This document shows positions 2,671 through 3,606 of a stretch of DNA of 64,000 nt, piece after piece. The first letter of the stretch is position 1. Each line of letters opens with the position of its first letter. The translations under genes were made by a program, and so were the position numbers. Below the pieces are notes generated by a model, which made no database searches, was not told the DNA's origin, and saw nothing but the letters and a program-made list of their open reading frames with translations. The stretch comes from Escherichia coli (GTDB taxonomy: Bacteria; Pseudomonadota; Gammaproteobacteria; Enterobacterales; Enterobacteriaceae), in the NCBI RefSeq assembly GCF_001677475.2, contig NZ_CP015229.1; one strand, written 5' to 3'.

Positions 2671-3170
2671 ATGACCCGTAATCGTGCTTAACGTTACCAT
2701 CCTATGATGCGATTAAAAAAACTCACCGTCGCGCTGATGATTGACGTCAATGCTATCGGATGATACCGGGGTGTTCCGGAAGGAATTCCTTGTTTCCCGA
2801 ACTGTTACCCACAAAATTATAACGACGAGCAAGTAAAGACCGGTTGGTGGCAGCATTGAACGGTCTGTGATGGATGTTAAATTTCACCTTAAATCCTGGT
2901 GCTGTTAGGATGCTGACGTTTTTCGGGTACACCATTCAGATTATGCAAATAAATATCTCTGAATATAATATATTCATAGCACCCATAATTCATCCTGGGC
3001 GATAACTAAACCATTTTTGAGTAATAAATGAAACAACTGCAACGCTCTTATTATTTCTGGAAAACGTCTCGCAAAAACAAAACAACATGCAAAAATCCGC
3101 TTTCGTTAATTAATTTTCCGGCGTAATTTTCGCACATACATTAATGAGTAATATATGTAAGGTATTGGTA

Positions 3171-3389
3171 ATGGCGATGAATACGGTTTTTCTTCATTTA
3201 TCAGAAGAGGCAATTAAACGGCTGAACAAGCTTCGGGGCTGGCGTAAGGTTTCACGATCTGCAATTTTACGCGAAGCGGTAGAGCAATATCTGGAGCGGC
3301 AGCAATTTCCGGTGCGTAAGGCAAAGGGTGGCAGGCAAAAGGGGGAGGTAGTTGGTGTTAACGATCAGTGTAAGGAGCATAAGGAATGA
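3171..3389 (+). CDS. yiiE: Ribbon-helix-helix (CopG-like) small DNA-binding protein YiiE
   Basis: ORF translation MAMNTVFLHLSEEAIKRLNKLRGW...; 72 aa from ATG 3171; paralogous to downstream yiiF. Confidence 0.8.
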   Translation: MAMNTVFLHLSEEAIKRLNKLRGWRKVSRSAILREAVEQYLERQQFPVRKAKGGRQKGEVVGVNDQCKEHKE

Positions 3390-3606
3390 CAAAAATTTTT
3401 CATTCTTGAATATAAAAAACAGATGCCCTTATTCTGGTATTAATACAAGGCTGTTTTACTTGAACTTATAATAACTGCAACTGTTACATCATATCTGGAA
3501 AACGCCTCGCAAAAATAAAAAATGATGCGTAAATGAGCTTTCTTTAAAGGTTTTGCAAGAGTATTTTGCTCACCATGCATTCAAAAATGATATACTGGAG
3601 GTATAT

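Follow-up and report, generated by a model that had tools for sequence, protein, structure and literature searches.

The window analysed here, a stretch of 64,000 nucleotides (nt) of the Escherichia coli contig NZ_CP015229.1 (assembly GCF_001677475.2) with 92-98% identity to E. coli, carries two small ribbon-helix-helix (RHH) genes in tandem, yiiE and yiiF, the second of which is followed by the gene of a PIN-domain toxin, vapC. A 22-nt sequence, called the box below, stands almost unchanged in front of each RHH gene. An earlier note on this DNA, made from its letters, had read the 22-mer as a promoter or operator copied by tandem duplication and possibly used by the two RHH proteins to regulate themselves or each other. 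In this work, we followed the box through related loci and sequence collections, and we propose, tentatively, that it is a recognition site for a protein that all its copies have in common. The features at the centre of the locus are the following.

3056 to 3077, plus strand: box copy M2, TCTGGAAAACGTCTCGCAAAAA, an exact pattern match ending 93 nt before the yiiE ATG (3171)
3171 to 3389, plus strand: yiiE, open reading frame (ORF) for a solitary RHH protein of 72 aa (Pfam RHH_1, E 1.6e-11; annotated yiiE / CopG family in E. coli)
3494 to 3515, plus strand: box copy M3, TCTGGAAAACGCCTCGCAAAAA, an exact pattern match ending 91 nt before the yiiF/vapB ATG (3607)
3607 to 3849, plus strand: yiiF, a vapB-type RHH antitoxin of 80 aa (RHH_1, E 3.7e-6; PDB 2K5J, YiiF; 7BY2_A, E 3.6e-37)
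3849 to 4223, plus strand: vapC, ORF for a PIN-domain toxin (7BY2_B 'Ribonuclease VapC', E 8.7e-63; annotated VapC in E. coli 2014C-3075)

Results

The vapC start overlaps the vapB stop (TAATG at 3847-3851), and the NCBIfam VapC models matched the product of 3849-4223 below their cut-off. Judged by homology, yiiF-vapC is here an intact VapBC type II toxin-antitoxin (TA) module, orthologous to the Klebsiella pneumoniae module of structures 7BY2/7BY3 (Kang et al. 2020, as cited in PMC11117207). With that module, and with the nuclear magnetic resonance structure of YiiF (2K5J), the window has in common an RHH antitoxin paired with a PIN toxin; the structural entries concern the proteins and not the 22-mer upstream, yiiE is a paralogue without a toxin, and yiiF of E. 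coli K-12, where only the last ~40 nt of vapC are left, is an orphan antitoxin because its vapC has been deleted.

The two boxes agree at 21 of 22 positions, with T/C at position 12 as the sole mismatch, and in K-12 the M2/M3 pair is identical throughout (22/22). No further match to the 22-mer with up to three mismatches was found in the 64-kb window, nor any match in dinucleotide-shuffled sequence (0/100 shuffles). The duplicated 22-mer of the earlier note is thus real, as are its distance of about 100 nt from each gene and the A-rich tract directly 3' of each copy; of the two positions given, 3494-3515 is exact and 3046-3067 has to be corrected to 3056-3077. Across E. coli genomes M2 is kept, being degenerate in a few strains, and the E. 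coli-type box occurs with a median of 2 and a maximum of 4 copies per genome, all at the yiiE/yiiF locus.

Conservation of the box in other genera

When one genome per species was scanned, 36 related loci were found. The sequence TCTGGAAAG-NNN-CTCGCAAAAG stands at a constant distance in front of the vapB orthologue in Citrobacter, Salmonella diarizonae, Klebsiella, Kluyvera, Enterobacter, Lelliottia, Trabulsiella, Franconibacter and Pseudocitrobacter. The resulting consensus is asymmetric and bipartite (TCTGGAAAR-NNN-CTCGCAAAAR, the 'M box'), with a free centre. Computed over 21 species, the information content is 1.88 bits per position for the 19 block positions of the box and 1.10 for its 3-nt centre, compared with 1.08 for the remaining spacer, 1.64 for the adjacent LexA box and 1.85 for a promoter-proximal element described below. 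The retrieved loci, 98 in number, amount to 0.63 Mb scanned for the box, in addition to strict-pattern scans of sequence collections, and 80 box-like copies match all 19 conserved positions. Inside the yiiF coding sequence of the window, a box-like stretch (TCTGGAAAATCAATCGAAAACG, 3744-3765, plus strand) has 3 mismatches over these 19 positions and is probably a by-product of the codons for YLENQSK.

In its fullest E. coli form, the locus runs from fabY through an esterase gene of the hormone-sensitive-lipase family (opposite strand), a LexA box, a first box copy (M1), a relE-like toxin gene with nadS (encoding a helix-turn-helix, HTH, antitoxin) and two small ORFs to M2, yiiE, M3, yiiF, (vapC) and fdhE (opposite strand). 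Outside Escherichia, no box was found after vapC. Between genera the relE-nadS cassette has diverged as much as the flanking genes (68-73%), which argues that the array esterase-LexA box-M1-relE/nadS-M2-(yiiE-M3)-vapBC is old and that relE-nadS has not been mobile recently. Despite the age of the array, M1 and M2 are nearly identical, and lineage-specific variants are common to both copies (TATGG in K. spallanzanii, CGCAGAA in Pseudocitrobacter), as would be expected of sites co-evolving with one trans factor. Gene conversion alone cannot account for the conservation, since genomes with a single copy keep the box too. These alignments show strong purifying selection on a DNA element that is common to functionally unrelated neighbours.

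Tandem duplication of the cassette

Pairwise alignment of the two upstream regions, extended to the genes behind them, delimited two units.

2960 to 3400, plus strand: duplication unit 1, with upstream region, box, yiiE and a vapC-like start remnant (ATGACAAAAAT...), from global alignment and repeat families D1-D5
3407 to 3855, plus strand: duplication unit 2, with upstream region, box, yiiF/vapB and the vapC start, from the same alignment and repeat families

The similarity extends well beyond the 22-mer: five collinear repeat families (D1-D5), spaced by 438-457 nt, run across the upstream region, the coding sequence and the 3' end, so that a whole unit of ~445 bp is doubled, as tandem duplication implies. 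Identity between the units is 52-67% per segment outside the 22-mer, with 62% in the N-terminal coding half, and 95.5% in the 22-mer. YiiE and YiiF share 46% of their amino acids and both belong to Pfam RHH_1, which bears out the paralogy proposed for them from the sequence, and the proposed tandem duplication is likewise confirmed, down to a doubled vapC start. Indeed, downstream of the yiiE stop (3385-3410), ATGACAAAAAT / ATGACAAAAATTTTTCATTCTTGA aligns with the vapC start ATGGCAAAAAG as a 7-codon remnant; the duplicated unit therefore formerly extended into the toxin gene. This alignment suggests that yiiE descended from a vapB that lost its toxin. Thus, yiiE and yiiF each have a box because a whole cassette (upstream region, RHH gene and start of the PIN toxin gene) was duplicated in tandem.

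Position of the box relative to the promoter

Supplementary file 5 of Kim et al. 2012 (PMC3415461) gives 4585660 as the transcription start site (TSS) of K. pneumoniae yiiF (KPN_04185), a position 4 nt in front of the annotated ATG and downstream of ...GGTGATATACTTGAGGTA / ...TTGCTCATAACTTCATCACTGGTGATATACTTGAGGTA. Its promoter is of the extended -10 type (TGaTATACT). Klebsiella vapB has the same box, extended -10 and proximal palindrome as the window, where the two promoter elements are as follows.

3588 to 3596, plus strand: extended -10 (TGaTATACT) of the yiiF/vapB promoter, with an inferred TSS at ~3603, by homology to the KPN_04185 TSS; kept in 21 species
3590 to 3606, plus strand: inverted repeat ATATAC-TGGAG-GTATAT over -10 and +1, from the sequence a candidate VapB(C) operator; 1.85 bits per position

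Relative to this TSS, M3 lies at ~-109 to -88, which puts the box outside the yiiF/vapB core promoter. If ~3603 is the sole start, GGAGG is outside the mRNA, and translation would be nearly leaderless or would begin at the downstream ATG of the K-12 annotation. The ATATAC-N5-GTATAT palindrome is kept across genera, and in K-12, which lost vapC, it is degraded together with the -10 and the Shine-Dalgarno sequence of yiiF. Having the right place and symmetry, it is a better operator candidate than the box. The proximal sequence of yiiE differs from that of yiiF and contains a palindrome of its own, CATTAATG, which would agree with the different beta-strand of YiiE. At two other loci, taking predicted promoters whose hexamers were picked by eye, the box centre is at ~-70 from the esterase promoter and at ~-60 from the dinG promoter, one helical turn apart; both promoters are predicted to be LexA-repressed. 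A sigma-70 promoter within the box was also considered and rejected, as neither strand has acceptable conserved hexamers and a consensus scan gave no plus-strand site upstream of either gene.

Other contexts of the box

The strict-pattern scans of sequence collections returned 4 viral and 44 metagenome stretches, the latter with these contexts.

21 stretches: esterase / LexA box / vapB type, one with a vapC remnant only
3 stretches: before relE-nadS
1 stretch: fabY-box-vapB without the esterase gene
11 stretches: prophage end with a divergent yedK-like gene, the box being followed by GGGGCAT iterons
1 stretch: prophage end next to pepN
1 stretch: E. coli dinG upstream region
6 stretches: unrelated coding regions, consistent with chance

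A third K-12 copy, TCTGGAAAGCGGCTCGCAA, matches the consensus at 19/19 positions in the 119-bp spacer between dinG and ybiA (NC_000913.3 ~832,951-833,069; locus L090), where the order is dinG ATG, 15 nt, LexA box, 46 nt, the box, 52 nt and ybiA ATG. In 541 of 5421 E. coli genomes (~10%), an espX2 effector islet replaces ybiA, and homology to K-12 ends exactly after ...CTCGCAA, the 3' edge of the box. No close ybiA homologue outside Escherichia was among the matches listed; in other genera rhlE, a terminator and then dinG follow one another, with only loosely box-like DNA.

Ends of prophages are the other recurrent context. Three types of prophage (Rac-like, P2-like and pepN-adjacent) have the box near an end, ~125-280 nt from the junction with host DNA. 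In the yedK-type context, a match to the Rac attB / ttcA region is found ~165 nt past the box, and on a viral contig ~125 nt separate the box from a 3' fragment of tRNA-Leu where a P2-like prophage ends. At the yedK-type loci (L042, L047-L089) and at L081, short iterons come directly after the box (GGGGCAT three or four times; at L081 also GAGGGCGAAC twice), and a GGTGCGCACC palindrome stands ~80 nt upstream of it. By analogy, iterons and a palindrome on the two sides of a prophage-end box would be a typical arrangement of attachment-site arms.

Deletions that remove yiiF and most of vapC occur in E. coli 23AR0762 (L098) and in E. whittamii (L004). They join the right block of the box (CCTCGC) to a CGCGAAATACGAG / CGCGAAAT microhomology in vapC, which looks like recurrent microhomology-mediated loss of the TA pair.

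Discussion

We favor, with a probability of roughly 0.4, the view that the M box is the far-upstream recognition site of one sequence-specific protein common to all copies. Such a far-upstream role is suggested by the place of the box, outside the core promoter and away from the -10/+1 palindrome, and recognition at the level of DNA by the lack of RNA structure, Rfam match and coding signature. A cassette would have been duplicated in tandem, after which its surroundings diverged and the box was held; a putative protein would recognise the box ~90-110 bp upstream of the yiiF/vapB TSS, and might modulate or insulate the adjacent promoters. The box would then be neither a core promoter nor the primary antitoxin operator. 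We infer that a protein binds to the box and that its binding affects transcription. Several points weigh against this view. The 19 near-invariant positions are stricter than the usual transcription-factor site, and the strict consensus is rare, its metagenome stretches coming nearly all from a few locus types; given this rarity, its reader is not a global regulator that controls many genes. The distance between box and promoter varies (~-98 at vapB, ~-135 at relE-nadS, 52 nt before the ybiA ATG), some E. coli strains have a yiiE box with a decayed left half, and the KPN_04185 TSS is backed by only 4 reads, in another genus. Moreover, homology between contexts often begins or ends at the box edges, which also fits a recombination-related role.

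As far as the literature could be searched, the box is undescribed: our search for its sequence gave no paper containing it. K-12 nevertheless has three copies of 19-22 bp, and over at least eight genera the element is conserved more tightly than a neighbouring LexA box. Once the factor that reads the box is found, two y-genes and a validated VapBC module would gain a regulatory input, and the finding might show how small TA cassettes are controlled or assembled at a chromosomal hot spot.

The earlier note took the 22-mer for a promoter or operator through which YiiE and YiiF might regulate themselves or each other, an idea that our results do not support. Type II antitoxin operators normally overlap their own promoter. 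Here it is the conserved ATATAC-TGGAG-GTATAT that overlaps the -10/+1, whereas the box, at -109 to -88, neither overlaps nor abuts the region from -35 to +1. In RHH-PIN and other type II systems (FitAB, VapBC; PMC3920265, PMC4803016), the operator is likewise a conserved sequence before the antitoxin gene, and its expected place and symmetry are seen in the ATATAC-N5-GTATAT of the window; in contrast, the 22-mer is ~100 bp upstream, asymmetric and found also at unrelated antitoxins and non-TA loci (before the HTH-type relE-nadS, in the dinG-ybiA spacer, at prophage ends), and is thus not specific to a cognate antitoxin. The base-contacting residues of the DNA-reading beta-strands also differ between YiiE (TVFLHLS) and YiiF (RILLDLS), yet the box in front of both is the same. 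There remains the idea of a distal operator of the RHH proteins (YiiF/VapB, the VapB-VapC complex or YiiE) for auto- or cross-regulation, perhaps looping to the proximal palindrome. A VapB-type RHH gene is indeed the one DNA-binding gene that adjoins the box in every esterase-fdhE locus, and the VapB beta-strand (MGRILLDLS) is invariant, like the box blocks; the left block holds a TTC-NN-GAA pseudo-palindrome of the size of an RHH dimer, with CTGGA common to it and to the centre of the proximal palindrome, and the variants shared by both copies of one genome are in line with a locally encoded protein that co-evolves with its sites. Taken as a whole, however, the box is neither a direct nor an inverted repeat, the pseudo-dyad being found in the left block only and the two blocks being unrelated in either orientation. 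Given these points, we consider a distal RHH operator unlikely. A possible reading, albeit a doubtful one, is that the M box marks one end of horizontally acquired segments in Enterobacteriaceae (TA cassettes, the ybiA/espX2 islet, prophage arms) for an unrecognised sequence-specific system, as an accessory site for different integration/excision machineries or as the target of a dedicated protein that controls or insulates acquired genes. One box at each acquired-segment end would explain the head-to-tail pile-up of cassettes, each with one box. In a narrower form, to which we give only a minor chance, integration, excision or cassette shuffling would use the box as an accessory (arm-type) site or as a junction site, and cassettes would accumulate head-to-tail. 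From one to four boxes do stand in tandem, each heading a different cassette; box plus vapB has five different left flanks, and deletions end in or just after the box (L098, L004 and L082). The dinG side, identical as far as the box and continued by either ybiA or the espX2 island, fits such a site, as do the restriction of ybiA seen among the matches listed and the three prophage types (Rac-like by ttcA/attB with its GGGGCAT iterons, P2-like by the tRNA-Leu fragment, one by pepN). Like the attachment-site arms and flanking direct repeats of temperate phages, the box occurs within a few hundred bp of prophage-host junctions, beside iterons and between cassettes; unlike them, it is without dyad symmetry and without a linked integrase, it is found with three different attachment systems, and its cassettes are not recently mobile. 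Recombinase core sites are inverted repeats, whereas the left block of the box has no similarity to the reverse complement of the right block, and no recombinase gene is linked to the box in the loci examined. Boxes separate cassettes, but outside Escherichia the direct repeat is not closed by a box after vapC, and the yiiE/yiiF duplication reaches ~100 nt past the box, which places its junction elsewhere. Strain AZ159 likewise has an insertion whose end is ~25 nt short of the box on the upstream side; CGC(G)AAA microhomology accounts for the L098/L004 deletions, relE-nadS is as diverged as its flanks, and selection that keeps the box would be enough to give rise to junctions there.

Three further explanations are unlikely. 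A sigma-54 promoter, giving yiiE and yiiF a leadered mRNA with a leader of ~85 nt, is highly improbable and already largely refuted. The box does share with the -24/-12 promoters (TGGCACG-N4-TTGCA; glnAp2 TTGGCACAGATTTCGCT; PMC4591121) a bipartite asymmetry, GG-N10-GC, TCGC at -12 and a free spacer; all copies have an invariant GG and GC with exactly 10 nt between them, the free centre falls where sigma-54 promoters have their non-conserved spacer, sites bound in chromatin immunoprecipitation (ChIP) such as CTGGAACGCTTTTCGCA look similar, and the conserved GGAGG would be used by a leadered mRNA. It has, on the other hand, GGAAA and not GGCAC, and the non-consensus A at -23 and -21 is invariant across genera, which is unexpected under sigma-54 selection. 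With a weight matrix built from 135 ChIP-seq sites (Bonocora et al., PMC4591121), the box scores 4.7-7.2 bits, where bound sites reach at least 6.7 and have a median of 14.4, and 89-241 positions of the window score at least as high. No sigma-54 occupancy is listed for the K-12 copies: yiiE, yiiF, dinG and ybiA are absent from the high-stringency site tables of PMC4591121 and, by gene name or b-number, from its supplementary files, among which the low-stringency list should be, and genomic SELEX (systematic evolution of ligands by exponential enrichment) with RpoN gave no peak at yiiE/yiiF. It is also very unlikely that the box is functionless, its identity being due to gene conversion or the box being a relic of a gene end or terminator flank. 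The variants shared by both copies of one genome and the decayed left half of some yiiE boxes could be read in this sense, and so could the Citrobacter dinG copy, with halves similar to the sequences that flank the rhlE terminator. Yet the blocks are almost invariant in single-copy genomes of more than 8 genera, which have no conversion partner, with 22-28 nt the tract barely reaches, or falls short of, the length that RecA-dependent conversion usually requires, and 19/19 identity between unlinked loci cannot be chance. Least probable of all, to the point of being hardly credible, is a function as RNA, whether as a leader element, a small ORF or a small RNA from an upstream, possibly LexA-controlled promoter. 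In relatives, the LexA box with a -10-like TATAAC ~55 nt upstream could drive transcription through the box, and short ORFs cross it in some genomes. However, the fold z-scores of the box (-1.5 to +1.6) indicate no stable or conserved structure, Rfam gave no match above noise, the ORFs are not conserved in frame, start or stop, the sole mapped TSS is downstream of the box, and a LexA box is lacking at the yiiE and yiiF copies of E. coli.

Two other candidates were discarded. Coding across the box was rejected because its three frames are without conserved starts or stops, the free positions fill a whole codon and putative third positions are invariant. For the sites of MetJ (metbox), PurR/LacI-family half-sites, the marbox, the DnaA box, and IHF, Fis and CpxR sites, partial matches appeared only in E. 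coli-type copies or in non-conserved flanks, and these candidates were rejected.

Neighbouring genes and minor observations

Some regulatory data exist for yiiE itself. In K-12, it is up 2.5-fold on SlyA overexpression and lies within H-NS-bound DNA (PMC5797941), and it is among the SlyA SELEX targets (PMC6134199). The yiiD-yiiE interval has a weak SELEX peak of RpoS holoenzyme, which our own coordinate conversion puts some 700 bp upstream of yiiE. The box is unmentioned in these SlyA, H-NS and RpoS papers on yiiE.

In relatives (L007-L036), the interval between the box and the divergent gene of a hormone-sensitive-lipase-family esterase of 302-309 aa contains a canonical LexA box, CTGTATGGATATACAG, at ~55 nt upstream of the box. 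The gene seems to encode an SOS-regulated esterase not described before; many E. coli have it, but K-12 has lost it by deletion and this window is without it. Where other strains have the esterase gene and relE-nadS, the window has a 614-aa ORF (651-2495) with a CKSAKDRT motif (CX5R phosphatase-like), which presumably resembles the SopB/IpgD active-site motif. The ORF is found in ~1,060 E. coli genomes, including strain 042, and had no Pfam or NCBIfam match.

A 16-nt inverted repeat (2913-2928 / 4241-4256; 15/16; CTGACGTTTTTCGGGT / ACCCGGAAAACGTCAG) brackets yiiE-yiiF-vapC and resembles the left half of the box. Its arms were considered as termini of an element and rejected, the right arm being restricted to Escherichia and showing no co-variation with the box; the repeat is possibly due to chance. 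The same is probably true of CCGGCGTAATTTTCGCA (3118-3134), between the box and yiiE, whose score with the sigma-54 matrix is 13 bits. Neither the yiiF unit nor other genera have kept this sequence, and the published ChIP lists do not include yiiE by name. The top match of this matrix in the window, CTGGCGCGAATTCTGCA (5652-5668, minus strand, 17.7 bits), is inside fdoI and is identical to the published intragenic ChIP-seq site IS47. Finally, a 19-bp stem-loop at 2625-2665 (AACTCCTGTGAAAGCGGCA / TGCCGCCTGCTCAGGAGTT) and, at 2672-2690, a shortened copy (MTRNRA*) of the Arg-rich 70-aa ORF that other E. coli have after nadS are remnants of the neighbouring cassette.

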